Shown in pieces: positions 1-19,953 of a stretch of 64,000 nt of DNA. How positions within the stretch are numbered: position 1 is the first letter of the stretch; every line of letters begins with the position of its first letter. The DNA is from an uncultured Bacteroidales bacterium. GTDB lineage: Bacteria; Bacteroidota; Bacteroidia; Bacteroidales; VadinHA17. A program made the position numbers and the translations under genes. The stretch lies in contig CAVPCP010000025.1 of assembly GCA_963702415.1 (NCBI GenBank), positions 29,973 through 93,972 of the forward strand, given 5' to 3'. The notes under the pieces are model-generated. The model was not told where the DNA came from and did not search any database. It was given only the letters and a program-made list of their open reading frames with translations.

Positions 1-2426
1 TACCCCCTCCTTACATAAGGACCTGCCATCATTAATATCGAGCGGTGGGCATCAACATGATCGACACCTCCCTGCGGGTCATCTTCTGTAATTATGACCA
101 GCATGTTTTTCCAGTATTTTGTCCGGGATAAAAAGTGCAATATCCTGCCAAGTGCCAGATCGTTATCGACCATGAATGAATGAGGATAAAAGTAGCCATC
201 CTCTGGCCTGATACGGGCTCCGTGATCATTTGGCAACTGCAATGTTACAAGCGAAGGCATCTCTTCGTTTCCGCTTATCCATTTTTCAGTGAATTCCTTT
301 TCAAACTGATCCATTCTGTACTGATCCGGTATATTCATATTGTATCCTGCATAGTTGTGACTTGTCCTGCCGAATAAAGCTTTTTGCATCGGAACCATAA
401 CACCATGTGATGCTCCTGTAAGTGTATCGTACCATTCCTCCCTTACGTGTGCAGTCTCATTGGCTTCACCAAAGTTATAGAACGAAACATTTTCCCTGTC
501 GAGCGCTTCCCAAAGTCCTCCGATTTCAGCATAATCTTCAGGATCAATGCTTCCTGTTGTTCCCGGATGACGCCTTCCCGGAGCATCAGAAAATATCTTC
601 GCAGTTTTTGAAACACTCGAATTCACTTCAACCCATTCATTTGGGATAACTCCCATCATCCAATGGTGGCCGTGGATAGACGCATCACTATCGCAATAAT
701 AGTTATCTGAAAATGCAAACTCTCCGGCCGCTTTATGGTGGTTAGGACTGATTCGGAGACCAGGGAATTTATCTATCATTGATAAAGGAAGCGTATACTC
801 ATTTTTAATGCCATACCGTGCCAGAGTACTGTCTCCATCGGCATTTTTAAGCTGACCGAAAACCTCGTCATAGGTCCTGTTCTCCTTTGTGATATAAACT
901 ACGTACTTTATCGGGGACTCACGCAATCCTGGAAGAGCCGGAAGAGGATTATCAGTATCATCCTTAATGTTCCGGACCATGAAAGTATTTTCAATTGATT
1001 GTTCAGTATAAAATGCCAGTTTGTCTTTGTCAGGCTGACTGACTTTCTGAAAACTACCCAGCTGAATATCGCTTATAAAGTCACCCTGAACCGGGATTAC
1101 GAAATCCTTTCCGCCGTTAGGACCGGCGCCCAGCCCCCTGCATGTGATTATATACAGATTCTCCTCATCCTTCGATAACAATACCCTTGTGGGGCCCCAC
1201 CCTGCAGGTATTAATCCTGTTGTTGTGCCTTTCTGAACATCAATTACTGCAACGGCATTGAAACCCAGAAGAGCCACATACAGGGTTTTTTCATCTTTGC
1301 TCAACGTCAGACCGAAAGGCAGTAATCCCCTGAATTTATCAATCCGGTCATCGACGCTTATCGGTATGTGTCCTGTTATCTTGTGGTTTCTGTAATCAAT
1401 TACTGAAATATTATCATTGGTTGCATTTGACACATAGGCAAACTGTGATCCTGCTGCTATTGAGTTAGGGCTTGCTCCACCAACAATTTCAGCATCTTCA
1501 ATCATTTGTCCTATCTGGTGACCCGTTTTGAATTTATCAGTCACCTGATTGGTTTGCAGGTCAACAGCAAATACACTCATTGCATCAGGATGAAGCGGGC
1601 TTCCGACTCCCGGAACCTCACGCCCTTCAATGACCGTTCCATTTATTGACTCAGGGGTATTATTCCCATAAGGATGATGTGAGATCAGCAATGAATCGTA
1701 GTTTTCAGGGGTGGCACCTGTTATCAGCGGGTATTCATACATCCCGACATTTGCAACGAATGCAGTTTTCTTATCCGGACTTAAAGTAAGGCCAAACGGC
1801 TGCCTTCCTGTCTTTACTGATGCCGTAACCTTTTTTGAGGAGAGATCAATGCGCACCATCCTGAAATTTCCCCTGTCAAGAACCAGCAGTTCATTTCCGG
1901 ATTCGTTTAATACCAGATCAGAGGTGAAACTGTCATTGTAAGTGGTACCATCAGCAACGCCATTCAGAGAAATTGAATCGAGACGCATCAGGGTTTCTGT
2001 ATCATAAACGATTACAGCTCCGTTATCGCCCCCGCTCAGATAGACAGTCCTTGAATCGCCTGCAAAACAAACGCCCAGGTAAGATCCGTTTGATAATGGC
2101 GATTTGATTGTTTTATCATAGCTTGGAACCCTTAAGGAAGTCATCGACTGCAGATCAATTATTGTAAACACACCATCGTGCAGTGTAACAGCTTTTTTGC
2201 CATCGGGCGACAGGGCCATTCCAAAAGGATCATGAGTGATCCTGATTAATTCACCGGCAGGCGTAAGAAATCTTCCGCTGGCAAGAACTGCGGTACCATC
2301 TTTTCTGATGACAGCTGGCATATTCCCGGCCGGTACAGTTAAAATCTCAACCTTTTTGTCAGTGCATCCGGATATGCAGGCTCCGGCAAGAATTAACAAC
2401 AAGAAGAAACGGCTGTAAAAATGCAT
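1..2426 (-). CDS. YncE/YVTN beta-propeller + phosphoesterase (alkaline phosphatase superfamily) lipoprotein, 3' end runs off the window
   Basis: Not in the ORF track because there is no stop inside the window. Manual translation from ATG 2426: MHFYSRFFLLLILAGACISGCTDKK (lipobox), PFGMALSPDGK propeller repeats, PIKYVVYITKENRTYDEVFG and EDDPQGGVDHVDAHRS. The three checked segments are in one frame. Confidence 0.85.
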   Translation of the reverse strand, partial: MHFYSRFFLLLILAGACISGCTDKKVEILTVPAGNMPAVIRKDGTAVLASGRFLTPAGELIRITHDPFGMALSPDGKKAVTLHDGVFTIIDLQSMTSLRVPSYDKTIKSPLSNGSYLGVCFAGDSRTVYLSGGDNGAVIVYDTETLMRLDSISLNGVADGTTYNDSFTSDLVLNESGNELLVLDRGNFRMVRIDLSSKKVTASVKTGRQPFGLTLSPDKKTAFVANVGMYEYPLITGATPENYDSLLISHHPYGNNTPESINGTVIEGREVPGVGSPLHPDAMSVFAVDLQTNQVTDKFKTGHQIGQMIEDAEIVGGASPNSIAAGSQFAYVSNATNDNISVIDYRNHKITGHIPISVDDRIDKFRGLLPFGLTLSKDEKTLYVALLGFNAVAVIDVQKGTTTGLIPAGWGPTRVLLSKDEENLYIITCRGLGAGPNGGKDFVIPVQGDFISDIQLGSFQKVSQPDKDKLAFYTEQSIENTFMVRNIKDDTDNPLPALPGLRESPIKYVVYITKENRTYDEVFGQLKNADGDSTLARYGIKNEYTLPLSMIDKFPGLRISPNHHKAAGEFAFSDNYYCDSDASIHGHHWMMGVIPNEWVEVNSSVSKTAKIFSDAPGRRHPGTTGSIDPEDYAEIGGLWEALDRENVSFYNFGEANETAHVREEWYDTLTGASHGVMVPMQKALFGRTSHNYAGYNMNIPDQYRMDQFEKEFTEKWISGNEEMPSLVTLQLPNDHGARIRPEDGYFYPHSFMVDNDLALGRILHFLSRTKYWKNMLVIITEDDPQGGVDHVDAHRSILMMAGPYVRRG

Positions 2427-2547
2427 ACCTTAATTATTACAATCCAAATTAATAATAAATATTCCAGTAAACTCCTGTTTTCCTGGTTGAAATCAGGCAG
2501 AAAGTCTTTTCAATCTTCAATTCATGATAAAAACTGAAAAACTGGGG

Positions 2548-5500
2548 CTAATTTCTCATTAACCGCCGGTATCTTAAGTATGCATTCAGTGAAAGTGAAA
2601 CAAGTACGATAACGGCAATATATACAAATGCCGGTACAGGGACCGGGTCGCCCCCGGCATACGAATGCAGGCCCGAGAGGTAATAGTTAACCCCGAAATA
2701 AGTCATCAGGACTGACGAGAATGCAAAGAGCGACAGCAGGTTAAATGTGTAAATATCTTTCATCCCGGGATATTCCGTGAGTGAATGACAATACTATATA
2801 TAATAATAGTTATCAGCGACCAAGTTTCCTTTGGATCCCATCCCCAGTACCTGCCCCAGGATTCATTTGCCCAGACAGCTCCAAGAAAGGTTCCGATTGT
2901 AAGCAGATAGAGTCCTAATGTCAGTGTCCTGTAGTTTATTACAACAAGCTCATCAATTGTATCCGAGATCCTGTTCATATTACTTTTGTCTGCAAGCGAG
3001 AGCAGTATCATTGTTATTATGCTCAGAATTGCACCCAGACCAAGGAATCCATAGCTCCCCGTAATTACAGATACATGTAGTGTTAACCAGTAGGATTGCA
3101 ACACCGGTACCAGGCTGGTAATCTCAGGATCCATGAAGCTGAGATGAGCGACCATTAGTGTCATTCCTGCAAGCACCGCTGTTGCGGAAAGTGCAAAAAC
3201 CGATTTCCGGCTGAAAATGAAACCTGCAAGGAGTGTAACCCACGAAATGAAAATCATCGATTCATAGCCGTTGCTCATGGGTGAATGTCCGGAAATGTAC
3301 CAGCGAAGCCCCAGTCCAAATGTATGGAAGAGGAATCCTGCAAAAAGATCCCAGCCCATGAATCTTAACAAATAATGAAATTTTGTTTCTGCCTCTTAAC
3401 ACCATTATTATCAGGCCTGTAAGCATAAGAAGGCCTATCGAGGCATAAAAGGGAAAAAGTCTCTCAAAAATCATTAGCCTGTAATACAAATATTCAGCTT
3501 TCGATTTTGAATCAGGAGGCAGATCGTACTTTGCAAATTTCTTCTGATAATCGATCACTGATGTTGTGACCTGTTTTGCGGTCTGAAGGTTATTGGTATG
3601 CAATGCTTCGGCAAGCAAGGGGATAATGTTCTTGAGATAAGTGGAATCTTCCCTGTTCATCGCCGTCTTCAGAGCTTCATCCGGGGAGGCCCAGTTGTGG
3701 GAATCATCATGAAGGGGAAATATCTTAAGGAAATTGCCAGTATAGATCATATACAGTATATTCACCCTCTCGTCGACTTTCATAATTTCCTTATCAGTCT
3801 TTGTCCTTTCACCCGGGGCTTTTGAATACGCTTTATTAATCCCTTCAGTTAGTTTATACGATCCTCCGTTATCAAAATTGACAAGATCAGAAAAAGCAAC
3901 ACGGTTTACGCTGATGCCAAGGCTTTTCTGCAGGTCCTTGTTTGATACCCTGATCATCGGGACATCTTTCCAGTTATCGAAATCGAGATAGACACCAAGA
4001 AATACCTGCATTGGGGTAAATCCATCCAATTTGCTTTCCCTGGCAACTTTTCTCAGAATGTCATTACTGAGAGTGAACAGAGGTTTCGTCCGTCCCTTCT
4101 GATCCTGAACCAGGACCTTTCCAAATTCTTCCGCACTATTTTTATCTGCAACAAGTTTCTGGGCATCTGTAAATCCGGTACCTGAAAACAATAATAAAAT
4201 AACAGCTGCCGTTACTTTCTTTCTCAGTGCAGATTCCCAGCGCCCGGCATTAATATTATTAAAAACAGATTCCCTGTTAAAAAGAGAAAGGATAATAAAC
4301 AGAACCAGCAATCCGTAGCCTGTATAAGTCACCAACATACCTGCCCGATCGTTATTAACCGACAGAATTGTACCCATTTCATCAGGATCATAAGATGACT
4401 GGTAAAAGCGATAACCTTTGTATTTCAGAATATTATTCATAAAGACTGTATAAGGCTTTTCAATGTTTGCTGCCTTATCTATCAGAACCACCTCGCTTTT
4501 ATAGCCCGATGGGCTGTTTGAACCCGGATACCTTTCAATCTGAAAATCATTCAGCCTTAATGAGAATGGAAGGGAGACTTCTGCTGACCCATATATTATT
4601 TCAAGGGTTTTATTATCAAAGTATACTGACTCTGAAACACGATTTACATCTGCATTATCCCATAAATTTATTGTTGAGACTATTTCATCGCCTGAATGAA
4701 GATTGAAAGTAAACAGGTTCTTCCCTGTCTCCTGATGATTGATGTCGACCGAAACAGTTTTTAAGATCCCTTTTAATGACATCTCCTGGGGCACAATTCT
4801 CAAGCCTTTGACTGTAATGATCTGCATCTGCTTTAATTCGGCCGTAACGCCCGATATCGACCGGTAAGGTTTCACGGGTCATCATATTGGTCAGGTCAAA
4901 CCTGAACTTTGATTTTACGAGGAATGAAACAGAATCATTGAAAAAGGTAATATCGCAATCAGCAGGTGGATTTAAGCCTATGGAGAAATCATTAAAAACA
5001 GTCGATTCGCCGTCTTTCAGGTGTAAGGTTTCCCTTTTAACAGTGTCGGTAACAACTATCGAAATTACCGGCTTCCCCTGGGGAGAATCGGAAACTACCT
5101 CAGCTGCATTCGGCAAAATGCTGGCAAGGATAAGCTTATAATCCCCGCCATCTGATTTTAACTTTTTCTTATATTTTTCAGCAGAAGCAGATCCCATATA
5201 ATATTTCTCTGAACTCTGATCAAGAATATTTCCTGAATTATCTTTCAGGATATAGCCAAGATTTTTATCCGATGAGAAGCATTTATTCTGTTCCTCTCCC
5301 TCCCGGATATGAATTGATCCCTCCCATCCGGTATATCTTGTAATTCCGGCACCTGCAATAATAAGTATGAAAGATAAATGGAATAGTAATATAGTAAGTT
5401 TTGATTTTTTATACAACTTATAAATTATCATCTGTCCTGCCAGATTGACAGCCAGGAGAAGCAATATAAGCTCAAACCATCTTGTATCATAAACAAAATT

Positions 5501-5620
5501 ATATGCTGCTGAGGAGCCATAGTCATTTTCAATAAATGTGGCGGCAGCCATTGATGCAGCAAATACTACAAACAGAATCCCCATAAAGACAGGGGAAAAC
5601 AGATATTTCATTCCTTTCAT
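2548..5620 (-). CDS. ccsA: System II cytochrome c biogenesis protein, fused ResB/ResC (CcsBA), split by 3 frameshifts
   Basis: Four overlapping ORFs join into one protein: ATFIEND/FHLSFILI ResB N-terminus, YRFYQSSYD, and WWD domain WANESWGRYWGWDPKETW with GVNYYLSGLHSY. Breaks near 4860, 3360 and 2761. Confidence 0.9.
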
Positions 5621-5828: not shown

Positions 5829-6526
5829 TTATCCTTTTTCCGAAATTTGATGTAGTCTTTTCCCTGTTAAGAATTTTTAAATCCGACAACCTGGTTTTTA
5901 TTAACTCCCAAATCTTCAAATTCTTTAAGAATTCTAACTACGCTTTCCTTAACCATGTTTGTCATTTCACCAAGTTCCTGCCTCGAAAGAATCATCTCAT
6001 ACTCATCTGATCCAAAAACATCATCGGATAAATAGAGTAATACCTCTGCCATCCTTCCGGGCATTTTTTTCTGTGCCAGATTAACCATTCGTGTATGGGA
6101 CCTTAGCGATTTTACACTAATATCCTGAAGCATACTTTCGGCAAAATCGCCATTTACCTTTACAAGATGTTTGAATATATCAAAGCTGATAAAGCATGCC
6201 CTTACGGAAGTCAATGCTGAAACCGAATAGGTATACCTCGAATTGACATAGGCTCCTGGTCCCATGATAAGCATGCCCGGAAGCAAAATACTCATTATAA
6301 AATTCCTGCCATGCAATCCTTCAACATAATTCTTTGCCATGCCCGAAGCAATGAATAAAGCGTTAGAGGAAGGGGATCCCTGTTTAATCAGTATCTCCCC
6401 GGGCTTAAACGTCGCTTCATACCTGTTCTCGTTAACCTGCTGCAATTCTGATTTTGTAAGGTGCTTAAAGTTCTCCCATCTTACCAGACAATTCTCACAA
6501 CTTTCAATTGAATTTGTTCCGGACAT
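5829..6526 (-). CDS. Crp/Fnr family transcriptional regulator (C-terminus apparently frameshifted)
   Basis: cNMP-binding-like domain (FKPGEILIKQG), HTH LSRQELGEMTNMVKESVVRILKEF and N-terminal CxxC. The track ORF ends at 5867, but other frames continue ...LKILNREK..HQISEKG* to 5829. Confidence 0.88.
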
Positions 6527-6604: not shown

Positions 6605-6618
6605 GTGACATATATCAC
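6605..6618. promoter_or_regulatory. Crp/Fnr-type operator GTGA-N6-TCAC
   Basis: GTGACATATATCAC lies in the divergent spacer between the Crp/Fnr gene and the hexaheme cytochrome gene. Confidence 0.65.
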
Positions 6619-6733
6619 CTGATCTCTTTATATCTGTCAATCTTGCATATTGCAAATAGCATGAGCACTGTTAATAAATTAACAATAGTTAATGACTAAA
6701 TTGCATCCGGAAATCAATCTTAAAACCGATATT

Positions 6734-7936
6734 ATGAAAAACCTGTTAAAACTGTTTACCATTTTCTTTTCTGCAGCTCTTCTGTTTTCAGCCTGTGAAG
6801 GACCAATGGGTCCGGCCGGTGCAGACGGATCAGACGGAGCTGACGGAGCTGACGGCACAGATGCAAATGAGACCTGCAAAACCTGTCATAACAGTACAGT
6901 TGTTCAGGCAAAAGCCATTGAATATGAGCACTCGCTTCATTTCACCGGAGAGGCCTTTGAGGAAGGGACGAGAAATAATTGTGCCCCTTGCCACTCTCAT
7001 CAGGGGTTCCTTGATGTTATCAAGAACAATACTCCGGCAACTATTGTTGTGAATCCTACAGATCCCACTAAATATGTAAATAATTATGTGGCGAGCGCTT
7101 CAGCAATTGCTCTGCCCGGAGCGATAAGCTGTTTCACCTGCCACAGTTCACTTCATAAAGAGTATGAATCGACAGAATTCATGCCGCTCGCAACCACAGC
7201 TTCGGTATCAATGACCATGTGGGGCGGATCAAAAAGTATCAATTTTGCACAGACCACCTCGAACCTTTGTGCTAAATGTCACCAGCCAAGACCAATAACT
7301 GCTTCTTCTGGCGCTTTGATTGATTATTCAAAACTGGTTTCAGAACCAGCAACAACTTATTCACTGTCGTCAATATCGTACCGGACTGGTGTTCATTATG
7401 GAACTCATGCTGCGATGGCTGCAGGAGTAGGAGGCATTGAATTCGGAACAGGATATACTAATTCTGCACACGTTGCCGGCGCTTCATGTACGGATTGCCA
7501 TATGGCCACTCCTTCAGGACTTGCCGGAGGACATTCATTTAATGCCACAGGGAATTTTGCAGGCTGCAACACCACAGGTTGCCACACATCAATGAGTTCA
7601 TCAAATGCAACATTCACAGCTGCAACGGCAGATATCACTACCAAGCTTGGTGAACTTGCTGCCGAGATCAATGCTATAGGGGCGGGACACGATATTCTTC
7701 AGAAAGATCCTGTAGATGGGTTATATCATGGATATTTTGATATTTATGATCAATCCGCTAATCCAACCGGATATTGGAAGAATCCGGCAAACGGGACTCC
7801 TGCATTCCCGGCATTAACCAATGCACAGTTTGGCGCAGTCCTTAATTACCAGCTTGTATTCAGGGATGCAAGTAAGGGGGTACATAATTATCCATACATT
7901 AAAAAACTCCTTGAGAACACATTATCTGCGATCTAA
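6734..7936 (+). CDS. multiheme (5 CXXCH + 1 CX4CH) cytochrome c lipoprotein with collagen-like linker
   Basis: Start MKNLLK at 6734; lipobox FSA-C; 7 Gly-X-Y triplets; CKTCH, CAPCH, CFTCH, CAKCH, CTDCH, CNTTGCH; C-terminal DASKGVHNYPY..LL helix. Confidence 0.9.
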   Translation: MKNLLKLFTIFFSAALLFSACEGPMGPAGADGSDGADGADGTDANETCKTCHNSTVVQAKAIEYEHSLHFTGEAFEEGTRNNCAPCHSHQGFLDVIKNNTPATIVVNPTDPTKYVNNYVASASAIALPGAISCFTCHSSLHKEYESTEFMPLATTASVSMTMWGGSKSINFAQTTSNLCAKCHQPRPITASSGALIDYSKLVSEPATTYSLSSISYRTGVHYGTHAAMAAGVGGIEFGTGYTNSAHVAGASCTDCHMATPSGLAGGHSFNATGNFAGCNTTGCHTSMSSSNATFTAATADITTKLGELAAEINAIGAGHDILQKDPVDGLYHGYFDIYDQSANPTGYWKNPANGTPAFPALTNAQFGAVLNYQLVFRDASKGVHNYPYIKKLLENTLSAI

Positions 7937-7957: not shown

Positions 7958-8002
7958 AAAAACAGAAGGGGCGTTGCATGATGCAACGCCCCTTCTGTTT
8001 TT
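7958..8002. terminator. bidirectional intrinsic terminator
   Basis: Perfect inverted repeat AAAAACAGAAGGGGCGTTGCAT-G-ATGCAACGCCCCTTCTGTTTTT between convergent genes, with A/T tails on both sides. Confidence 0.9.
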
Positions 8003-8026: not shown

Positions 8027-8443
8027 CTATTTCTTGAATGTCCTCATATAATTTACCGTATTCCAGAGATCATCATCCGATAATTTACCTTCATACTTGG
8101 GCATTTCATCCCTTCCGAATTTGGACTTGTAAAAATGTTCACCATCAGTCTGGTTCTGATAAGCTGCACCTGAGAAGTCACCAGGATGACTTTTCAGAGC
8201 TCTGGCTTTAACTCCGTCCCCAAGGCCTGTTTTACCATGACATGAAGCACAATTCTTATCATACAGGGTCTTTCCTGCTTTGTTACTTGCCTCACCTGGT
8301 GCAACGGGATTTTTCATCGTTTTAAAGTTAGCCGGAACATCCCATGGTTTTGGCTGAGTCTGTGCCTCCAGATTCATAGTAATGAAAGAAAGGCCAATAA
8401 CTGCCACTGCTGAACTAATTAAGATTTTCTTAAATGTTTTCAT
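8027..8443 (-). CDS. periplasmic class I monoheme cytochrome c
   Basis: Signal peptide, KNP..GKTLYDKNCASCHG, and distal Met (DEMP). Confidence 0.9.
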   Translation of the reverse strand: MKTFKKILISSAVAVIGLSFITMNLEAQTQPKPWDVPANFKTMKNPVAPGEASNKAGKTLYDKNCASCHGKTGLGDGVKARALKSHPGDFSGAAYQNQTDGEHFYKSKFGRDEMPKYEGKLSDDDLWNTVNYMRTFKK

Positions 8444-8510
8444 AATTTACTGTTTTCTAATTTTTGTTAAATAATACAATAATCGTGCAAATATTAATTT
8501 AATGTCAATA

Positions 8511-9401
8511 TTACAGCTTAGCTTTTTTCTTACTTTCTCTTTTAATTAGAATAAGACTTATGATTGCAAACAGATAGTGCCCCCATACACCTGCAAGAAG
8601 AACTGAGAGTGTAATTATCATCCACCTCGGTGCAGTCTTTGTCCAAAGGGCTCTATGTGATACCGGGGCCTGATTTGCAGAAGGAACGCCCCATTTTATT
8701 TCAACTTTCTTTTCAACATTCCCAAAATCCGGATGTTCTTCAAATTTTGAAATAATTGTAAGATTCCCTTCACTGTCTCCCGGTAAGTCAGATGGAAATT
8801 CAAGGCTGGCAGTCCCGCCTTCATCCAGTGTTGCCTCACCTATGGGCAACAGACTGAACATCCTTGGCACATATATCATCACCACTTCTTCTGAGACCGG
8901 GATGTCTGAGGTATTTTGCGGTGCAACAGCTTTCAGGGAAATAGTTTTAATACTGTCAACCTCCTGTAAAGACATTTCAAGCCTGACATCCTTGATTGAA
9001 AGTTCTGAGTTGGCCGCTTCGATTGTATCGTTCCCATTAAACTCAGTACTGAACATCCAAAGTCCATCTTCATTAATTGGGAGTCTGATATTTTTTGTCA
9101 ATTCCAGGCTGGCAACACCTTTATAATCGGTAAAAACGGTACCCAGTAACTCTTTTCCTTCTGCTTCGGAAAAAAATGATATTTCCATCCCGGGAATGGG
9201 TATTTCCATTCTGTTAAAAGAATAGGTCAGCGTTGTTTTCAGAGACCGCGATTCATCAGTATTCTTAAAGTACTGAAGCTGGATGTATGGACTTATTATA
9301 TTTTCTTCCTGTGATAATATTGGATATGAACCTAATAAAAGAAACAATAAGGCAGTATAAAATATTGATGATCCGTTTTTCATATTAAATACCTTAATCA
9401 T
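8511..9401 (-). CDS. exported protein with C-terminal membrane anchor, function unknown (cytochrome operon member)
   Basis: N-terminal signal, acidic beta-rich body, C-terminal hydrophobic helix and Lys-rich tail; no heme motif; abuts nrfD. Confidence 0.7.
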   Translation of the reverse strand: MIKVFNMKNGSSIFYTALLFLLLGSYPILSQEENIISPYIQLQYFKNTDESRSLKTTLTYSFNRMEIPIPGMEISFFSEAEGKELLGTVFTDYKGVASLELTKNIRLPINEDGLWMFSTEFNGNDTIEAANSELSIKDVRLEMSLQEVDSIKTISLKAVAPQNTSDIPVSEEVVMIYVPRMFSLLPIGEATLDEGGTASLEFPSDLPGDSEGNLTIISKFEEHPDFGNVEKKVEIKWGVPSANQAPVSHRALWTKTAPRWMIITLSVLLAGVWGHYLFAIISLILIKRESKKKAKL

Positions 9402-10710
9402 CTATTTAAGAATTTCCTCAGCGTCGTGTTCCTGCATCTCGGATATTGATACTATAGGGGCTATTTTCGAAATAAGCATGAACAGCATTACAAAAACTGA
9501 AACTCCGGCAAGAGTAAGAGACCATTCAATCCATGTCGGAGAATATTTAATCCATTCTGCCCTTGTATCCTGAACTGGCAGGAACGGTGTTTCAAGTGTT
9601 GGTATTACAATAATGTAACGGTTAACCCACAATGCAAGTACGGCAATAACAGATGCCACAGTAATGTTAGGAATTGTACGGAATTTAGGGAATGCAATTA
9701 TAATTGCGGGAAGCAGTATTCCTATATAATTGGCAAAAATAAAGAGCAAATAATATTCGTTAAAAAGTTTGTCGATCAGAATTGAATCCATTTTTATTGA
9801 TCCGTACCATTTTGTCAGGTAATCACTGAATGTAAAGTATCCGTAAAATGCTGCAATAACTGTAAGCAGGACACCGACATTTACAAAATGACGTTTAGTT
9901 ATATACTCTTCAAGATGATAAATTCTTCTGAATATCCACATTAGTATTATTAGGAGCCCCGTACCTGAAAAGACAGCTGCAATGACAAAGTAAGGACCGA
10001 AAATTGTTGAGTGCCAGCCAGGCTGTAATGTAACACCAAAAATCCAGGCAAGAACTGAATAAACAATAATTGCTATTGCAATTATCATCACCGACATAAT
10101 TGTCCTTGCGTTTGATAACAGCTTTTTTTGTCGTGGAGACCCATCATATCCAAGTGAAAGTACTTTATATAACTTTCTTTTCCATGGGGGAACCCGGAGC
10201 CCGTCGTAGTCGCGTAATATTGCAAAATCCTCAACAAATGAGAGGTACAGATAAATAAAACACCCGAAAAGGTCTGTTATAATTGCTATAACGTCCCATG
10301 TTATTGGTGATTGTATTCTTGGATGAATAAACAGGAAGTATAATCTGTCAAGGCGGCCTATGCAGAAAAAAATAAAAAAAGGACCTATTATCAGCGAAAT
10401 AACAGTAATCAGCTCAGCCATTCTGATTACCGGCTTTCTCCATCCGGTATTGAACAAATGCAAGGACTCCCGAAATAAGTGCCCCCGAATAACTTAACCC
10501 CATAAAAAAGATAAAATTCACTATATAAAAGCCCCAGACAACATTATCGCGCATGCCTGTTACAATATGTCCTTTATCGATCTGCTGTATCAATCCATAA
10601 ATTCCTAAAAGGAAAAAGCCAAGGAAAACTGAAAAGGTAATATACCAGGTTGTGCTGGTACTTTCAATTTCCGGAGTAAGATCTTTAAGAAGTTTTTTGT
10701 CAGCTTGCAT
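9402..10710 (-). CDS. NrfD/PsrC family quinol-interacting membrane subunit (one frameshift near 10460)
   Basis: VTGMRDNVVWGFYIVNFIFFMG (ORF 10414-10710) continues into R.AEL..GRLDR..SPITWD..GWHST..PYFV..A.FSG (ORF 9402-10463); many TM helices. Confidence 0.9.
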
Positions 10711-10733
10711 CCTGAATTATTTTCCGAAGTTTA

Positions 10734-11699
10734 TTAACGTGGCCCGGCTTTTTCGTACCTTCCTTTTATATTTTCATCATAGCCATCAAGACCTCTTTCA
10801 ACAGGAAACATTCTCTGGGTCGGTGGCAGGTAGAAAACACTTGGCAATGTCCCCAGTTCTTCACGGTATCTGAAACCGGCCCTGTCGTTCATCAGCTTGC
10901 TGAATCGGACAGTCTCTTCTCCATTTGTAACTGTATCTTCAAGAAGATCCCCGAAGTAGATAACTCCCATCGGACATGCGGTTACACAACGCGGAAGCAG
11001 ATTCTTCCGGAGGTTATCGGCACAGAATACACATTTTCCGACAGTTCCTTCCACCGGAGGGATATTGGTCTCTGGATCATATACATGCCCTTCGGGTAAT
11101 TTAACTTCCGGATCTTTCCAGTTGAATACTCTTGCAGAATAAGGGCAACCAGTCATACAGAATTTGCAGCCAATGCACCTTTGATTATCTACAAGTACAA
11201 TTCCATCAGCACGCTTGTATGTTGCACCAACAGGGCAAACGCTTACACACATCGGTTTATCGCAGTGAAAGCAAGGTCTCGGGAACCAGTATTTTGAAGT
11301 GTTGTTATCATCCTGAAGAAGGTATAGTTTAATCCATTCATGGTCTTTTGGGAGCATATGACCTTCCTGACAGGCATCGACGCATTTTCTGGCATTTTTG
11401 CACTTTGCCAGGTCGATTACCATAACGAATTTCCTGTATGGCAATCCCTTTCTTGCTTCCTCCTTAAGTTCTGCAACAATTTCGCGGGATGGCCTGATAT
11501 CATCCTTATCGACTTCAACAAGTTTACCTTCAGGCGATAAAAGCTTAATCTTAACGCCTGATTTTGTACCACTTTCGTGATTCATGCCTGCAGAACCTGC
11601 AACACCTGCAAGCGTTACAGCACCAACTCCGGCACTCATCTTTTTGAGGAATCCGCGCCGTGATGATTTTCCTGATTTTTCCGGGTCTTTACCTTTCAT
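10734..11699 (-). CDS. Tat-exported NrfC/DmsB-like 4Fe-4S protein
   Basis: SRRGFLK Tat motif; CKNARKC..C, CFHC..PMCVSVCP, CIGCKFCMTGCP, KCVFC..PRCVTACP. Confidence 0.92.
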   Translation of the reverse strand: MKGKDPEKSGKSSRRGFLKKMSAGVGAVTLAGVAGSAGMNHESGTKSGVKIKLLSPEGKLVEVDKDDIRPSREIVAELKEEARKGLPYRKFVMVIDLAKCKNARKCVDACQEGHMLPKDHEWIKLYLLQDDNNTSKYWFPRPCFHCDKPMCVSVCPVGATYKRADGIVLVDNQRCIGCKFCMTGCPYSARVFNWKDPEVKLPEGHVYDPETNIPPVEGTVGKCVFCADNLRKNLLPRCVTACPMGVIYFGDLLEDTVTNGEETVRFSKLMNDRAGFRYREELGTLPSVFYLPPTQRMFPVERGLDGYDENIKGRYEKAGPR

Positions 11700-11702
11700 T
11701 TC

Positions 11703-12326
11703 TTAGTCATTGTGATTTTCCGGTTCATGGTAGCCTGAAACCATACTTTTAAAAAGGGAAGTCGGACGTGCGCCGAGTGTACAGGTATAAATATGAATTA
11801 TCATAAATACAGATAAGAAAAATCCCATCGTAATATGAAGAATATCTGTAAGTATCATTCCGCTGATCCCGATAAACCGGTTTATGACAGTTTCAGGGAA
11901 AAGTAACCCCAGCCCCGAGATTATAAGCAGGGGTACAGCAACATACATCGCAAGAAAATAGGAGAGTTTCTGTAACGGATTGAATTTTTGTTCCAGTGTT
12001 ACCGGAAATGGATGTTTCTGCCCTTTAAAAATCCCGAATGCATAATACTTAACCTGGGTTGTCAAATCTGCGAGGAAATTCTTTTTTTCAATTTTGTAGT
12101 ACCTGCCGTTTCCCGAAAGGATATTACCTGTTACAAAAATTATATAATTTATGGTAAGAAGTATCGCAGCAATATTATGCCATTTTACCGCTCTGGCAAA
12201 ACCGACCATCAGAATGTAATCCTTCATGTCAGTATACTGCATGCTGATACCGGTTACGATCAAAACAAGGAAAAGGATCGCATTAAACAGATGCCATAAC
12301 CTTACCCATATAGGATATAGATACAT
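11703..12326 (-). CDS. di-heme cytochrome b membrane subunit (FdnI/HydC/PhsC type)
   Basis: Four TM helices with His in RLWH, WHN, ILHI and IHIY; KFNPLQKLSY motif. Confidence 0.9.
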   Translation of the reverse strand: MYLYPIWVRLWHLFNAILFLVLIVTGISMQYTDMKDYILMVGFARAVKWHNIAAILLTINYIIFVTGNILSGNGRYYKIEKKNFLADLTTQVKYYAFGIFKGQKHPFPVTLEQKFNPLQKLSYFLAMYVAVPLLIISGLGLLFPETVINRFIGISGMILTDILHITMGFFLSVFMIIHIYTCTLGARPTSLFKSMVSGYHEPENHND

Positions 12327-12338
12327 TTTCGTTTGTTT

Positions 12339-13318
12339 TTATTTTCTGATAACCCTGAAATAAATATGTACAATAATAATTATCAATACAATGCCAGTTA
12401 TGAGAAGGCTTATAATATTAAGATACTCATTCCTGTTTGCACCGATTACATATGACTGGTTCAGGATTATTCCATTAAGAAATCCATCCTGCCGTTGTTC
12501 TTTTGACTGGAATTTATAAAGTGATGACATTAGTAATGAGTTCCTGGAGTGACATTCATTGCACCCTTTTACTGCTTCCTCCTTTGGCTTGATAAGATGT
12601 GCAACAAGAATAGTATCATTGACCATCGTATGGCATTCAATGCATCTGACACTTTTAAAATGGGTTTCCTGATTTGGCAGCCATTCATGTTTCTTTAGAA
12701 TGTTTATCTCTTCTTTCTCGGATAATAACTGGAACTGGTCATAATGTGAGTGACACCTCAGACATATGTTATTATCGTAAAGAATTGTCTCCTTCAGATT
12801 TGAAGTGTTCCGGATACTGATTTTGTAGTCATGCGGTCCATGGCATTTCCAGCAGGAAAAACCTTCTTCTTCTAATTTAAAATGAGAACTCTTCTGGTAT
12901 TCAGATTCTATTTCTTCAAAATTAAACTGAGCAAATTTTTCATCATTTCCATGGCAGTCAATGCAATTGTACATCTGTTCCATCCGTAGTTCCCCGGAAT
13001 GCGGGAAGTTTTCATAATCGGAGGAATGACAATCGGTACAACTGAAACTTTTATGGTTTGACTGATAAAACTTATCCCTGTTAATTATCCTTTCTGAAAA
13101 CATTGATGCCTTAACCATGGCGTCCAAGGTTTTCATTATTATACTCATACTTATTCTGTCCGTGACATTTAAAACAGCGCTCATTATCTTCGTAAAAAGG
13201 AGATTTAAAGGATACTGTATCCTGCGTACCAGTTTGTTTATTGTAAAAAACCGATCCGTTTACTGAAATATTTGAAATTAAAGTGACAAACAAAACAAAA
13301 AGAACATGTCTGAACATT
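12339..13318 (-). CDS. membrane-anchored heptaheme cytochrome c (one frameshift near 13120)
   Basis: N-terminal ORF has a signal and CFKCH; C-terminal ORF has CTDCH, CIDCH, CWKCH, CLRCH, CIECH, CNECH, then YVIGANR and a TM helix containing His. Confidence 0.88.
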
Positions 13319-13349
13319 GTTAAACTTATCACGTGCTTTTAAAATTAGT

Positions 13350-14213
13350 TTAGAATCTCACTGTAATATTAAACCCTACAAGATATTCCCAATCTGTAAG
13401 GGCATTTGTATTATATAGCAGATTGTACTGGTTTATAATGTTCGAATAATTTGTGACGAAAACCTGGAACGAGTGAGTAGCTGTGCCTATTTCCCAGCCC
13501 AGTGACAGGCTTGGTTTTGGCTGTTCATCAAGATCCTGTTTTGTCAGAAGCTGATCATATTCAAAAATTAACGAATGAGAACCAAAAAGATTTGCCCGGC
13601 CTCCTGCCGATACCCCGAAATTGAGGTTCTTATAACTTGATTCATTAGAATACTGGGGCACCGCATTGAAATAGATAACTGACGGTGCCAACTGGAAGGA
13701 GAATTTTTCACTGAACTTACGGGCCAGGATCAGTTGCGTAAAATACGATAACCGGTGTATGAACCTGTACCTTTCCTCCGGACCGAAAGCATCCTGATCG
13801 CGAAGGTCAAGCACAAGATTTCCATAATATGAAAGAGAAACGGGCATACTGTTATCTTCCGTTTGCTGAAGAATCAGATATTTCCATTGAAGGTCCTGGA
13901 GCTTATAATCCTTTGTTGTTCCTGCTCCAATCATTATTCTGTCAGTTATTCCGTAATTCAAACCCAGCCGTGTATTTGCAGCGCCATAAATTCCAAAAAG
14001 ATTATCAATGTTTTCAATCAGACTGAACCTGTGATGTATCTGAAATTCAAGCCCTCCCTTGTAAGGAGTTGCAACTGTCTGATTCTCAATAAGTGTACCA
14101 GTACCAAATGTGAATCGTACAGGTTTGGATTTTTCAGGTGCCGGGGCCTCCTCCTGAGCTGATAATGAAACCATGAAGGCCGATAACAGCAACAATAAAA
14201 AAGTCTTTTTCAT
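13350..14213 (-). CDS. outer-membrane beta-barrel protein (DUF5777-like)
   Basis: Signal peptide, alternating amphipathic strands, EFQIHHRF / HSFQVF motifs, and terminal GFNITVRF BAM signal. Confidence 0.8.
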   Translation of the reverse strand: MKKTFLLLLLSAFMVSLSAQEEAPAPEKSKPVRFTFGTGTLIENQTVATPYKGGLEFQIHHRFSLIENIDNLFGIYGAANTRLGLNYGITDRIMIGAGTTKDYKLQDLQWKYLILQQTEDNSMPVSLSYYGNLVLDLRDQDAFGPEERYRFIHRLSYFTQLILARKFSEKFSFQLAPSVIYFNAVPQYSNESSYKNLNFGVSAGGRANLFGSHSLIFEYDQLLTKQDLDEQPKPSLSLGWEIGTATHSFQVFVTNYSNIINQYNLLYNTNALTDWEYLVGFNITVRF

Positions 14214-14240
14214 TTTATCTGGTTTTAGGATTATTTTTAA

Positions 14241-14618
14241 TTAATTGTTTTGTGCGCCCTGATCGATCCAGTTATAAATCAGTTGTTTTTCAGGATCGAT
14301 TGTAAAGGATGTATGATTGGATGAAGTAATCTTCTTATAGAGTCTGCTGTCGGCTGCCGGAAGATTTACATACCCTCCTGTGGTAAGCGACTCATAGGAA
14401 TTACCATCTCTCAGGTCAGGATCACGTGAGCCTTTATGACAAGTGATGCAGTTATCATTGAATATTGGCTGAACCTGGGTCTGAAACAAGACCGTTTCCC
14501 CCGGATCGACTTCCTCCTGGACAATTTTATATTCTTCACAGGATGAAAAGAAGATCATACATGCCGGAATTAATAATGCCGTCATAGCCCTCCAAAACAA
14601 TTTCGTTCTTATTTTCAT
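14241..14618 (-). CDS. monoheme cytochrome c lipoprotein
   Basis: Lipobox FSS-C followed by EEYK; FQTQVQPIFNDNCITCH; C-terminal WIDQGAQNN. Confidence 0.85.
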   Translation of the reverse strand: MKIRTKLFWRAMTALLIPACMIFFSSCEEYKIVQEEVDPGETVLFQTQVQPIFNDNCITCHKGSRDPDLRDGNSYESLTTGGYVNLPAADSRLYKKITSSNHTSFTIDPEKQLIYNWIDQGAQNN

Positions 14619-14916: not shown

Positions 14917-16695
14917 CTAAAAGTTATAAAAGTTATCCTCAATAAGCTTATCGGCTATCCGCCTTCGTGCGTCCTTAATATTTATTCCTTTTACCTTAGC
15001 CAGTATTTCAATGGCACTGACCAGTCCTGGCATTGATTCCGGGGAGGCAAAAGAACAGACAGCATCCATTGCTGATTTTCTGACTATGTCGGATGTATCA
15101 TAGATATTTACGTCGAGCATATCTTTATAAACTGATACATGACCCTTTAATGCTTCAAGTTTTTCAACACGCAATGCAAGTGATTCGGAAAGATATGTTT
15201 CCATCATCATTTCGGCAATATTGTTCATTACCTCCTGCTCGCTGACAAGATTCTTGCCAAATTGACTGACTGCCCCATGCATGCAAAGAAGGATTATCTT
15301 CTTGAAATTCCTTGTATACCTCTTTTTTTCCTGGAAATATGACTCCTCTGAATTTTTTCCGTCGGTTATTTCATCCAGTTCATTATATAGTTTCTCAGCC
15401 TCTCCGAAAAGGTTAAAATCACCTTTCATGGCGCGTTTCATTGCAGTATCAGAAACCAGAAGCCGGTTGATCTCGTTTGTTCCTTCGAAGATCCTGTTTA
15501 TTCTCGAATCACGGTACCCTCTTTCCACATCCATTTCAGCTGAATATCCCATACCTCCATAAATCTGAACAGCTTCATCAGCAATAAAATCAAGCATTTC
15601 AGAACCGACTACCTTCAGGATTGCAGCTTCGACTGCATAATGGCTTATGGCCTCAATGGCGGCCCTTCCTTTGTCGCCGCATTCTGATTTCATCTTTTCC
15701 ATCAGATCATCAATATCACTGCTTACCCTGTAGACAGCTGATTCTGACGCAAAAAGTCTGATTACCTGTTCAGCAAGCTTATGTTTTATGGCTCCGAAAG
15801 TTGAGATCAGAACCCCGAACTGCTTGCGCTCATTGGCGTATTTCACCGAATCGTTAATCGCTTTCTTTGCAGCTCCAAGGACATTGGCACCAAGCTTCAG
15901 CCTTCCCATATGAAGAATGCTAAGAGCAATCCTGAAACCTTCGCCTCTTTTTCCAAGGAGATTTTCAACAGGGACATTAACATCGTTAAAATAGATCTGA
16001 GCTGTCGAAGATCCCTTTATACCCATCTTGTGCTCATCAGGACCAATCACCACACCGGGATATTTGCTTTCAATAATGAAGGCGCTCAGTACCCTGTCGT
16101 TGTCAATTTTTGCAAAAACGACAAGAGTATCTGCAAATCCGGCATTGGTGATCCACATCTTTTGCCCGTTAATTATATAGTGTTTACTGTCGTCCGAAAG
16201 CTTCGCGTTTGTTTTTCCTGAATTAGCATCACTGCCTGCACCTGGTTCTGTAAGGCAATAAGCGCCAATCAATTCACCGGTAGCAAGTTTCGTAACGTAC
16301 CGCTGCCTCTGATCTTCATTCCCGTAGTACATTATCGGCAGTGTTCCAATACCGCAATGAGCCATATAAGCTACTGAAAATGAATAACCTGCACCTGTCG
16401 TTTCAGCAACAAGCATTTGGGTAACAAAATTCTGTCCGAACCCGCCGTATTCTTCGGGTATGGAAATTCCCAGCATCCCAAGATCTCCGGATTTCTTCAG
16501 GATGATTTTCATAAGCTCCCGGTCGCTTTTCTCAAGCGCCTCCATGCTGGGATAAACTTCAGCCTCAAGAAAATCCTTGCATGACTGGGCAATCATTCTC
16601 TGTTCCTCGTTAAATTCTTCGGGAATAAAAATATCCTTTGCTTCAATTTCATTAACAAGGAATTCTCCGCTTTTCAAGATTTTTCTGGTCTCCAT
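14917..16695 (-). CDS. acyl-CoA dehydrogenase (long, FadE/VLCAD-like)
   Basis: AYCLTEPGAGSDA, NGQKMWITN, KMGIKGSST, ERKQFG, GGMGYS, RIFEGTNEINR. Confidence 0.95.
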   Translation of the reverse strand: METRKILKSGEFLVNEIEAKDIFIPEEFNEEQRMIAQSCKDFLEAEVYPSMEALEKSDRELMKIILKKSGDLGMLGISIPEEYGGFGQNFVTQMLVAETTGAGYSFSVAYMAHCGIGTLPIMYYGNEDQRQRYVTKLATGELIGAYCLTEPGAGSDANSGKTNAKLSDDSKHYIINGQKMWITNAGFADTLVVFAKIDNDRVLSAFIIESKYPGVVIGPDEHKMGIKGSSTAQIYFNDVNVPVENLLGKRGEGFRIALSILHMGRLKLGANVLGAAKKAINDSVKYANERKQFGVLISTFGAIKHKLAEQVIRLFASESAVYRVSSDIDDLMEKMKSECGDKGRAAIEAISHYAVEAAILKVVGSEMLDFIADEAVQIYGGMGYSAEMDVERGYRDSRINRIFEGTNEINRLLVSDTAMKRAMKGDFNLFGEAEKLYNELDEITDGKNSEESYFQEKKRYTRNFKKIILLCMHGAVSQFGKNLVSEQEVMNNIAEMMMETYLSESLALRVEKLEALKGHVSVYKDMLDVNIYDTSDIVRKSAMDAVCSFASPESMPGLVSAIEILAKVKGINIKDARRRIADKLIEDNFYNF

Positions 16696-16736
16696 TTCGG
16701 TTATTTAAAAATTAAGTAATTCATTTTACAATTTTG

Positions 16737-16844
16737 TTTGCCCCCAACCCCCTGAAGGGGGCTAAACCCATTGCTTTTACTACCAACTCATTTGCCCCCA
16801 ACCCCCTGAAGGGGGCTTAATCCAATGCTTTCACCACCAATTCA
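16737..16844. repeat. 54-bp tandem duplication containing a REP-like hairpin and the 3' end of the Fe-S oxidoreductase gene
   Basis: Units 16737-16790 and 16791-16844 share TTTGCCCCCAACCCCCTGAAGGGGGCT exactly and differ at 6 positions in the remainder. Confidence 0.85.
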
Positions 16845-18910: not shown

Positions 18911-18923
18911 TATTATAGTTATT

Positions 18924-18950
18924 GTACGGGCATAGCATGCTATGCCCCGC
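18924..18950. repeat. REP-like palindrome
   Basis: GTAC followed by the perfect 20-bp palindrome GGGCATAGCATGCTATGCCC (18928-18947) between etfA and fadF. Confidence 0.65.
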
Positions 18951-18959
18951 CCCTTCCAT

Positions 18960-19928: not shown

Positions 19929-19953
19929 ATGGTTTGGTGTTTTTTGAATATTT

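Follow-up and report, generated by a model that had tools for sequence, protein, structure and literature searches.

A stretch of 64,000 nucleotides from an uncultured Bacteroidales bacterium of the VadinHA17 lineage (GenBank assembly GCA_963702415.1, contig CAVPCP010000025.1, positions 29,973 to 93,972 of the forward strand; hereafter the window, whose own numbering is used throughout) carries at 6734-7936, on the plus strand, a gene whose product, judged from its sequence, is a lipoprotein-type, membrane-tethered c cytochrome with six heme attachment sites. The best explanation of this protein, which we hold with moderate confidence, is that it forms a membrane-tethered, stalked hexaheme trimer in the periplasm and acts as a respiratory terminal reductase with an open heme, heme 2. 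It is probably the output end of a respiratory gene cluster conserved in uncultured Bacteroidales. The superfamily to which the heme core belongs is already known, as is CX4CH as a type of heme site; the hexaheme layout, the lipid anchor, the collagen-like stalk with its predicted trimer and the fixed Bacteroidales cluster appear to be undescribed in the literature searched.

The gene begins at an ATG at 6734, ends with a TAA at 7934-7936 and encodes a precursor of 400 amino acids that aligns with its relatives over its full length. Use of an upstream ATG at 6692, which would add 14 residues, is unlikely because nearly all relatives begin at the MK... encoded from 6734. Residues 1-20 make up a Sec signal peptide, and a lipobox, F-S-A-C, completes this region (6734-6796, plus strand) with the lipid-bearing Cys21 at 6794-6796; cleavage before Cys21 and lipidation are therefore expected, giving a mature protein of 380 residues (about 39.6 kDa without hemes). 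In the conservation alignment (A1, 141 sequences), to which the per-residue counts below refer, Cys21 is found in 139 sequences and Glu22 in 122. The 13 cysteines comprise the lipid cysteine and 12 within heme motifs. Eleven of the 17 histidines lie outside the motifs, and six of these (H69, H141, H221, H246, H267 and H384) are invariant or present in at least 136 relatives; C21, H141, H221, H246, H384, Q184 and R186 each occur in at least 135. Base composition over 1-20 kb (35-45% GC) is without sign of recent transfer. An earlier note, made from the letters of the window, had described a hexaheme lipoprotein with a collagen-like tether. All of the sequence features that it listed are present, and they are not products of chance because the same features recur across hundreds of relatives; the lipobox cysteine, the six heme sites and the Gly-X-Y run are all conserved features of the family.

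The six heme sites can be placed in order on the solved relatives (all coordinates on the plus strand). Site 1 (CXXCH, C48-H52, 6875-6889) is invariant and in the profile alignment represents an extra heme N-terminal of an NrfA-like core. Site 2 (CXXCH, C83-H87, 6980-6994) aligns with the heme-5 motif of OcwA, which corresponds to the heme-1, or catalytic, position of NrfA, and carries His where NrfA has Lys. Site 3 (CXXCH, C133-H137, 7130-7144), placed on NrfA heme 2 by the family and profile alignments, is followed by the conserved H141, and site 4 (CXXCH, C179-H183), equivalent to heme 3 in an alignment with E. coli NrfA, by the conserved Q184 and R186 (7268-7291 including these residues). 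Site 5 (CXXCH, C252-H256, 7487-7501; NrfA heme 4) is followed directly by M257, and site 6 (7565-7585; NrfA heme 5) has the spacing CX4CH, C278-N-T-T-G-C-H284. All six motifs, together with H69 and H267, are invariant in the 141-sequence alignment, and CXXCK is found neither in the window protein nor in any of the 150 listed family representatives.

Motif and triplet counts were made on proteins that start with Met, are 320-480 residues long and hold at least five motifs, a filter that left out 31 of the 150 representatives, which were fragments or long fusions, and 7 rows of the close set. Exactly six heme motifs are present in 117 of the 119 remaining representatives and 113 of the 114 close full-length proteins. 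Among these six-motif proteins, site 6 reads CXXCH in 90, CX4CH in 24 and CX3CH in 3 of the 117 representatives, and CX4CH in 109, CXXCH in 4 and CX3CH in none of the 113 close relatives. The CX4CH motif is a genuine heme site because it aligns with CXXCH or CX3CH in relatives, and its reading as a clade-specific spacing at a real, conserved site argues strongly, at the level of sequence, for six hemes. CX4CH heme sites also occur in class III cytochromes c3, and a match to Pfam Cytochrom_CIII that falls below its cut-off (E 5.7e-4) spans residues 244-290 with sites 5 and 6. What had been singled out as a non-canonical site is thus real and aligns with NrfA heme 5, but the motif type is not new and is here a clade variant. 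In the literature searched, no paper was found that used the motif terms CX4CH or CXXXXCH alongside heme lyase.

When searched singly against PDB chains, the window protein gave nothing significant, its best cytochrome match being OcwA at an E-value of 1.8. A family profile searched against PDB sequences recovered OcwA of Thermincola potens (4.3e-18), OmhA of Carboxydothermus ferrireducens (1.8e-16), Geobacter lovleyi NrfA (5.4e-13), E. coli NrfA (about 1e-11) and octaheme nitrite reductase (8e-11). With OcwA and OmhA the profile alignment is good only in their C-terminal parts; with NrfA it spans some 240 residues and places sites 3-6 on hemes 2-5 (E 5.4e-13 to 1.4e-11). An AlphaFold2 model built from the 141 sequences has a mean predicted local distance difference test (pLDDT) of 92.0 and a predicted template modelling score of 0.85; Foldseek against the PDB, a comparison that the earlier note had called for, places OcwA first (E 3.3e-4), followed by OmhA (0.08) and NrfA (0.35). 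Pfam Cytochrom_C552 (PF02335) scores 10.7 bits on the window protein against a cut-off of 24.1, and is matched by 39 of 116 relatives at E<=1e-3. The C-terminal region (7607-7933, plus strand) is modelled as helices at residues 292-314, 363-378 and 386-399, and includes the motif G382-V-H384-N385 (7877-7888), which is shared with OcwA, OmhA and NrfA, and the nearby Y388 and L392/L393; H384 is present in 139 of 141 relatives. The likeness to helical bundles of the NrfA/HAO superfamily that had been suspected from this motif is supported, by profile matches and by fold, as a kinship with NrfA, octaheme nitrite reductase and OcwA, with the motif lying inside the predicted helical region. On these alignments the hexaheme family is within the superfamily of NrfA, octaheme nitrite reductase and OcwA, and its heme layout reads as one added heme plus an NrfA-like core of five hemes in which the catalytic-position heme is attached through a CXXCH, rather than a CXXCK, motif.

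The surroundings of that heme are what make a catalytic role plausible. According to the OcwA paper, hemes 5-9 of OcwA can be superposed on hemes 1-5 of NrfA, a non-ligating His-His pair (380/381) lies above the open face of the five-coordinate heme 5, and the enzyme reduces nitrite and hydroxylamine as well as iron oxides. The numbering of the paper is offset from that of the PDB entry, and the offset can be fixed through another His pair (281/282) visible in the alignment. In the window protein H221-Y222 (7394-7399, plus strand) aligns with the non-ligating pair of OcwA and OmhA, the stretch of the window protein aligned with OmhA being R217-x-G-x-H221-Y222-G, and the family consensus around H221 is G-P-H-H-G-P-Q. 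H221 is present in 140 of the 141 sequences; position 222 is Tyr in 70 and His in 62, with Tyr in all 24 close relatives. Q184 (139 of 141) and R186 (135 of 141) follow the site-4 motif, and R186, three residues past the site-4 His, stands at the aligned position of the NrfA catalytic Tyr. The catalytic residues listed for NrfA are a Tyr, a His and an Arg (PMC9250108); the positions of the last two fall in gap-rich stretches of the alignment. In the alignment, the best-conserved non-ligand residues, Q184, R186, G219 and H221, cluster at the active-site pocket of OcwA and NrfA. This pattern suggests that heme 2, at the catalytic position, keeps a conserved OcwA-like distal pocket formed by H221, Tyr or His at 222, Q184 and R186. 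The terminal reductase proposed in the earlier note is thus plausible as regards its pocket, but the Lys and Tyr of NrfA are absent.

Directly after Glu22, the protein carries a collagen-like stalk of seven uninterrupted Gly-X-Y triplets, G23-D43 (6800-6862, plus strand), and Tandem Repeats Finder detects within it a 9-nucleotide period at 6817-6855 (4.3 copies). At least four triplets precede heme 1 in 115 of the 119 full-length representatives and 72 of the 114 close full-length relatives, with median counts of 8 (range 0-16) and 6 (range 0-9), respectively; across the family, longer fusions included, stalks span 3 to 25 triplets. Pro occupies 30% of X and Asp 35% of Y positions. Trimerization was modelled with three copies of P0248 (residues 19-345, 116-row alignment), a shorter relative that is 35% identical to the window protein and has 10 triplets where the window protein has 7. 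The three-copy model scored 0.60 (runs 0.62, 0.48 and 0.60) against 0.00 for the best control, with contact agreement of at least 91% and partner pLDDT of at least 85 in the runs. In calibration, 20 of 30 solved pairs scored high enough to pass, as did 1 of 23 single chains; these counts are only a rough guide for P0248, which was modelled from a self-made alignment and in three copies. Residues 19-50 of each copy form the predicted interface, where glycines at 27, 30, 33, 36, 39 and 42 meet their counterparts in the same register, and the helix after heme 1 (60-71) packs against residues 113-123 of the neighbouring chain, just before heme 3. The model supports a trimer driven by the Gly-X-Y run, with a collagen triple helix, in this family. 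The trimer raised as a possibility in the earlier note accordingly has a triple helix in a controlled model of a 10-triplet relative, but for the window protein it is an extrapolation. No publication on a fusion of collagen and a multiheme cytochrome was found in the literature searched.

The family is large and almost wholly unnamed. Of 8000 candidates scored in a word-indexed search, 931 were relatives at E<=1e-3; the best 120 are 56-98% identical to the window protein and are almost all unnamed or "hypothetical" proteins from metagenome-assembled genomes of Bacteroidales. An exhaustive search of representatives at 50% identity found 704 at E<=1e-3, 401 at E<=1e-10 and 62 at E<=1e-30. A scan of 185,579 species genomes (one per species), with a 28-sequence alignment (A2) as the query, returned 490 pattern matches, and at 439 of these loci a relative is encoded; the 80 best were examined, and all come from metagenome-assembled genomes assigned, in nearly every case, to Bacteroidales, Bacteroidota or Rikenellaceae. 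By pattern, a lipobox is present in 100 of the 119 full-length representatives and 102 of the 114 close full-length relatives. Pfam returns only generic multiheme models for the window protein and NCBIfam returns no family match. The ESM Atlas listing, which is not an alignment, hints at members in Myxococcota, Gemmatimonadota and Chloroflexota. In a published evolutionary survey of the superfamily the words hexaheme, Bacteroid-, lipoprotein and collagen are all absent. Four loci (L049, L050, L052 and L070) hold two copies of the hexaheme gene in tandem or near-tandem, encoding proteins of 345-373 residues in the first three and of 414 and 426 residues in L070. Longer fusions (P0135, P0190 and P0237) are found among the representatives: one of 642 residues has an extra N-terminal domain and 25 Gly-X-Y triplets, and those of 721 and 797 residues have the hexaheme unit followed by eight more CXXCH motifs.

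Gene order around the hexaheme gene is strikingly constant across loci. Synteny was sampled in the best 80 loci, all of them Bacteroidota-like, and the counts that follow are for the 50 loci of at least 15 kb. CcsBA, a system II cytochrome c synthase, is present in all 50; in the window (2525-5620, minus strand) it is broken into several frames, and in relatives it is a single open reading frame (ORF) of about 1025 residues. Convergent with the hexaheme gene lies a respiratory operon of eight genes (8027-14618, minus strand), which in order of transcription encode a monoheme lipoprotein, a DUF5777 barrel, a multiheme cytochrome with a membrane helix at its C terminus, a cytochrome b, an Fe-S protein, NrfD, a 296-residue protein and a monoheme cytochrome c. 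The multiheme cytochrome is found in 49 of the 50 loci, the PhsC-like cytochrome b in 47 and the monoheme class I cytochrome c in 42, and the NrfD/Fe-S/296-residue module, present in the window, in 15. Seven CXXCH motifs and a C-terminal membrane helix can be read in the multiheme cytochrome of L008, an intact relative. The 296-residue protein (8511-9401, minus strand), which has a signal peptide, a C-terminal membrane helix and no Pfam or NCBIfam match, always accompanies the NrfD/Fe-S module. The earlier note had called the hexaheme gene a monocistron; both neighbours are indeed on the opposite strand in the window, but the gene is one fixed member of a conserved respiratory cluster.

One product of the operon is predicted to be an outer-membrane barrel, and another may reach the cell surface. 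The DUF5777 protein (13350-14213, minus strand; 49 of 50 loci) is modelled as a 12-strand outer-membrane barrel (pLDDT 82.5) that resembles the small channels NanC, the COG4313 channel, FapF, Tsx and KdgM, and no paper on DUF5777 was found in the literature searched. Set beside the MtrAB complex, in which MtrB holds MtrA, such a barrel would be far too narrow for a multiheme cytochrome and suited to a solute channel. The small monoheme lipoprotein (125 residues, 14241-14618, minus strand; 40 of 50 loci), encoded first in the operon, has a lipobox F-S-S-C followed by E-E-Y-K. With two acidic residues following its Cys, this lipoprotein may be surface-exposed and may form a split cytochrome-plus-barrel pair. 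In 17 of the 80 loci the hexaheme gene is adjoined by a gene for a 499-residue membrane cytochrome (in L002 at 1348-2847, plus strand), in several of them downstream on the same strand. This cytochrome combines a region of the NapC/NirT/NrfH type at its N terminus, where two membrane helices can be discerned by eye, with seven heme motifs, of which one is CX3CH, an architecture that presumably recalls the ImcH-type quinol dehydrogenases. The window itself, searched for a NapC/NirT-like gene, has none.

Further features of the region concern a possible electron input and its assembly. Downstream of the cytochrome operon (14917-20703, minus strand) are genes for an acyl-CoA dehydrogenase, a membrane oxidoreductase with Fe-S and CCG domains and the alpha and beta subunits of an electron-transfer flavoprotein (ETF). 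These genes co-occur with the cluster in 20-42 of the 50 long loci; they may bring in electrons by reducing quinone, or be no more than conserved neighbours. Frame breaks relative to intact relatives affect 2525-5620, 9402-10710, 12342-13329 and 26984-29237 (all minus strand): the counterpart of the 1032-residue CcsBA ORF of L001 is spread over frames -1/-2/-3/-2/-1, the frame of NrfD is interrupted near 10,480 and that of the multiheme cytochrome near 13,125, and a P-type ATPase is apparently split into ORFs of 439 and 317 residues. In L001, a locus 98% identical to the window, other genes are broken instead (those for the Fe-S protein and cytochrome b), so assembly indels are more likely than pseudogenes; the hexaheme gene is intact in the window.

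On its other side, the hexaheme gene is divergent from a gene for a Crp/Fnr-family regulator with an N-terminal C-x2-C (5867-6526, minus strand), which adjoins it in 46 of the 50 long loci. The C-x2-C also occurs in the homologue from L064, and the closest solved relatives of the regulator are generic Crp/Fnr proteins, without a clue to its signal. The 207 bp between the two genes hold two conserved palindromes. The first, TGTTA-N6-TAACA at 6669-6684, some 65 nucleotides upstream of the start codon, is a candidate operator that occurs exactly in 40 of 67 homologous intergenic regions, compared with a mean of 0.08 in shuffled sequences. The second, at 6605-6618 (about -130), is a degenerate FNR-type box with the core TGA-N6-TCA, at the same position as the box of its relatives, whose consensus TTGAY-N4-RTCAA (at most one mismatch) is found in 62 of the 67 regions against a shuffle mean of 4.4. 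From this arrangement the divergent protein is likely the regulator of the hexaheme gene. Beyond the stop codon, a hairpin at 7959-8001 with a stem of 20 bp (10 G-C pairs) stands between an A-run and a T-run. The strong terminator reported earlier is thus present, and its layout suggests that it is likely bidirectional and shared with the convergent cytochrome c gene.

How might these parts work together? In the proposed mechanism, the six hemes would be attached by the adjacently encoded CcsBA, and the Gly-X-Y run, with its seven triplets, would wind three chains into a collagen-type stalk of about 6 nm. The heme domains of the trimer would touch, the heme-1 helix of one chain meeting the heme-3 region of the next, and the trimer would face the periplasm. 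Electrons from menaquinol would reach it through the adjacently encoded quinol-oxidising modules, namely the cytochrome b with the heptaheme cytochrome, the NrfD/Fe-S module here and the NapC/NirT-type protein in some relatives, and the monoheme cytochrome c may serve as an intermediate. They would then run along the heme chain to heme 2, which is probably five-coordinate like OcwA heme 5, in a pocket lined by H221, Y222, Q184 and R186. There a small soluble oxidant would be reduced, which could enter through the 12-strand DUF5777 channel of the outer membrane. The divergent Crp/Fnr regulator probably switches the system on through the two conserved upstream palindromes. By analogy with the relatives, the first candidates for the substrate are nitrite or other nitrogen oxyanions, hydroxylamine and nitric oxide (NO), with sulfur oxyanions, soluble Fe(III) and quinones as alternative candidates.

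The main rival is a pure relay without a catalytic site, in which all six hemes are bis-His, H221 ligates heme 2, and a stalked trimer anchored in one membrane bridges the periplasm to pass electrons from inner-membrane quinol dehydrogenases to an outer-membrane or extracellular acceptor. We consider this unlikely, while granting it real weight: the conserved histidines outside the motifs number exactly six, as many as the hemes, the cluster combines inner-membrane modules with outer-membrane parts (the 12-strand barrel and the monoheme lipoprotein with its two Glu), a stalk would help to span the periplasm, and the heme-1 region touches the heme-3 region of the next chain in the P0248 trimer model. 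However, the most conserved non-ligand residues sit where OcwA and NrfA have their active-site pocket, the aligned His pair is non-ligating in OcwA, stalk lengths that vary from 3 to 25 triplets argue against a fixed spanning distance, and the 12-strand barrel is too narrow for housing in the manner of MtrB and MtrA. A bolder version of the same idea, distinctly improbable in our judgement, makes the collagen-stalked trimer the periplasm-spanning wire of an unrecognised Bacteroidales trans-envelope electron conduit. Here a rigid triple-helical stalk and three head-to-side heme chains would form an 18-heme assembly. It would connect the quinol dehydrogenases of the inner membrane (the cytochrome b with the heptaheme cytochrome, the NrfD/Fe-S module and the NapC/NirT-type protein) with an outer-membrane pair, the monoheme lipoprotein and the DUF5777 barrel, which would function like a split Cyc2-type cytochrome-porin. 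A different doubt concerns the stalk itself, which could be a flexible low-complexity linker on a monomer, or on a dimer formed through C-terminal helices in the style of NrfA and OcwA. NrfA is a dimer. OcwA is reported to have crystallised as a dimer and to have run as a mixture of monomer and dimer. In the AlphaFold2 monomer residues 21-45 are without secondary structure (pLDDT 65-74), the window protein scores 15.6 bits on Pfam Collagen (PF01391) against a cut-off of 27.2 (E 0.014), and certain close orthologues carry just 3 triplets, which would not suffice for a free-standing triple helix. The strict Gly periodicity that is kept while length varies, the wide occurrence of at least four triplets with Pro-rich X positions, the Pfam Collagen matches in 32 of 116 relatives at E<=1e-3 (best 5.9e-9) and the three-copy model, which passes with a triple helix, all speak against such a linker, and we regard it as doubtful.

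Where the protein resides bears on a further rival, a terminal reductase in the outer leaflet at the cell surface that would reduce insoluble Fe(III) or Mn(IV), humics or electrodes, in the way of OcwA and OmhA on Gram-positive cells and of MtrC on Shewanella. In its favour, OcwA and OmhA, which reduce iron at the cell surface, are the nearest relatives with solved structures, many Bacteroidota lipoproteins are surface-exposed, and the stalk is rich in Asp at the Y position. Work on lipoprotein surface export in Bacteroidota describes a requirement for at least two acidic residues near +3 to +6, after a polar or basic residue, with K-(D/E)2, SDDDD and SDDFE as tested signals in Capnocytophaga, Bacteroides and Flavobacterium (PMC5080379). 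No such signal is present in the window protein, whose residues +2 to +6 are E-G-P-M-G, and E-G-P after the lipid Cys is nearly invariant in the family. A periplasm-facing location is more likely than the surface because the export signal is absent from the sequence. There is, moreover, no large MtrB-type porin in the cluster, and the gene for a NapC/NirT-type membrane quinol dehydrogenase that adjoins the hexaheme gene in 17 of 80 loci is reminiscent of the nrfHA pair, which is periplasmic. A surface reductase is thus quite unlikely, and the surface electron carrier offered earlier as an alternative to a reductase becomes the weaker reading, the more so as the cluster has a small outer-membrane channel of its own. 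Exceedingly unlikely is a nanowire subunit like OmcS, with hexaheme units polymerising into a filament. Heme count and size are those of OmcS and the family profile touches OmcS at an E-value of 6.4e-6, but the match spans only 48 residues around the first heme motifs, no OmcS-type structure is among the 23 Foldseek matches at E<=10, and the window protein is lipid-anchored with an NrfA/OcwA-like fold and a C-terminal helical bundle; an OmcS-like filament was rejected on the first two grounds. An MtrC-like reading was likewise rejected, the window protein having no match even at E<=10 to PF22113, the domain of the MtrC/OmcA outer-membrane decahemes, and no corresponding Foldseek match; PF22113 is matched by 97 of 116 relatives at E<=1e-3, with an MtrC profile match of about 130 residues.

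Several points, in addition to the shortest stalks, weigh against a stalked trimeric reductase as the preferred reading. The catalytic Lys of NrfA is absent and the Tyr position is occupied by Arg. The six conserved extra histidines fit six bis-His hemes, or five distal ligands and one pocket residue, and H221 may itself be a ligand of heme 2, which would make the window protein a plain bis-His electron carrier. The structural likeness is partial, with a TM-score of about 0.41 to OcwA and just two Foldseek matches at E<=1e-3, both of them OcwA chains, and the window protein is below every specific Pfam and NCBIfam cut-off. The trimer passed for a 35%-identical relative with 10 triplets and is extrapolated to a protein with seven; since collagen helices are well represented among solved structures, this pass may reflect likeness to them. 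Synteny was sampled in Bacteroidota only, and part of the constancy may be shared descent. In the literature searched, no experiment on any member of the family was found.

Key steps in the cycling of nitrogen, sulfur and iron are driven by multiheme cytochromes of the NrfA/HAO/OcwA superfamily, and uncultured Bacteroidales are usually regarded as fermenters. The present family, for which there is no specific Pfam or NCBIfam model, would add to this superfamily a hexaheme, lipid-anchored and collagen-stalked form. Provided that both the trimer and the open heme exist, it would offer a new route to multi-chain heme assemblies, by collagen-driven trimerisation, a testable candidate for an anaerobic respiration that has gone unrecognised in a major environmental order, and a natural minimal collagen triple helix used as a molecular spacer. 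Should the trimer instead be a periplasm-spanning wire, fermentative Bacteroidales of sediments and digesters would gain a route of extracellular electron transfer unrelated to Mtr, Pcc and OmcS.

Among known systems the closest are OcwA (PDB 6I5B) and OmhA (PDB 6QVM), which are the best matches in profile and fold, share the C-terminal helices with G-V-H-N and have an NrfA-like C-terminal module with CXXCH, rather than CXXCK, at the catalytic position. The window protein likewise has His at the first place of the distal His-His pair, but has Tyr at the second. It has six hemes, compared with nine in OcwA and eleven in OmhA, and is without their c554-like N-terminal module and second open heme. 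It also differs in its lipid anchor and collagen-like stalk, and belongs to a Gram-negative host in which it is probably periplasmic, whereas OcwA and OmhA are placed at the cell wall or S-layer. With NrfA it shares the order of sites 3-6 on hemes 2-5, including C-x-D-C-H-M and the His 6-7 residues before it, the C-terminal helical region and, in some relatives, a NapC/NirT-type gene alongside, as in nrfHA. Unlike NrfA it has no CXXCK, and so no Lys ligand, and it has one added N-terminal heme; the window family is predicted to form trimers, in contrast to the NrfA dimer. The likeness to class III cytochromes c3 lies in the same CX4CH attachment spacing and is local to that motif, the predicted fold and heme arrangement of the window protein being NrfA-like.

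For the stalk, we take the appropriate comparators to be the bacterial collagen-like proteins (PF01391) such as streptococcal Scl and Bacillus BclA. The window protein resembles these in its uninterrupted Gly-X-Y triplets, its Pro-rich X positions, the lack of a need for hydroxyproline and a predicted trimerisation of the head, but its run is very short, at seven triplets, and is fused to a multiheme cytochrome and a lipid anchor. A looser parallel is PgcA of Geobacter sulfurreducens, described as a triheme lipoprotein whose heme domains are separated by Pro-Thr repeats that showed no special secondary structure by circular dichroism. Both are lipoprotein-type multiheme cytochromes whose heme domains are carried on proline-rich, low-complexity spacers; however, the repeats of PgcA are Pro-Thr and lie between domains, and the protein is extracellular and unrelated in fold.

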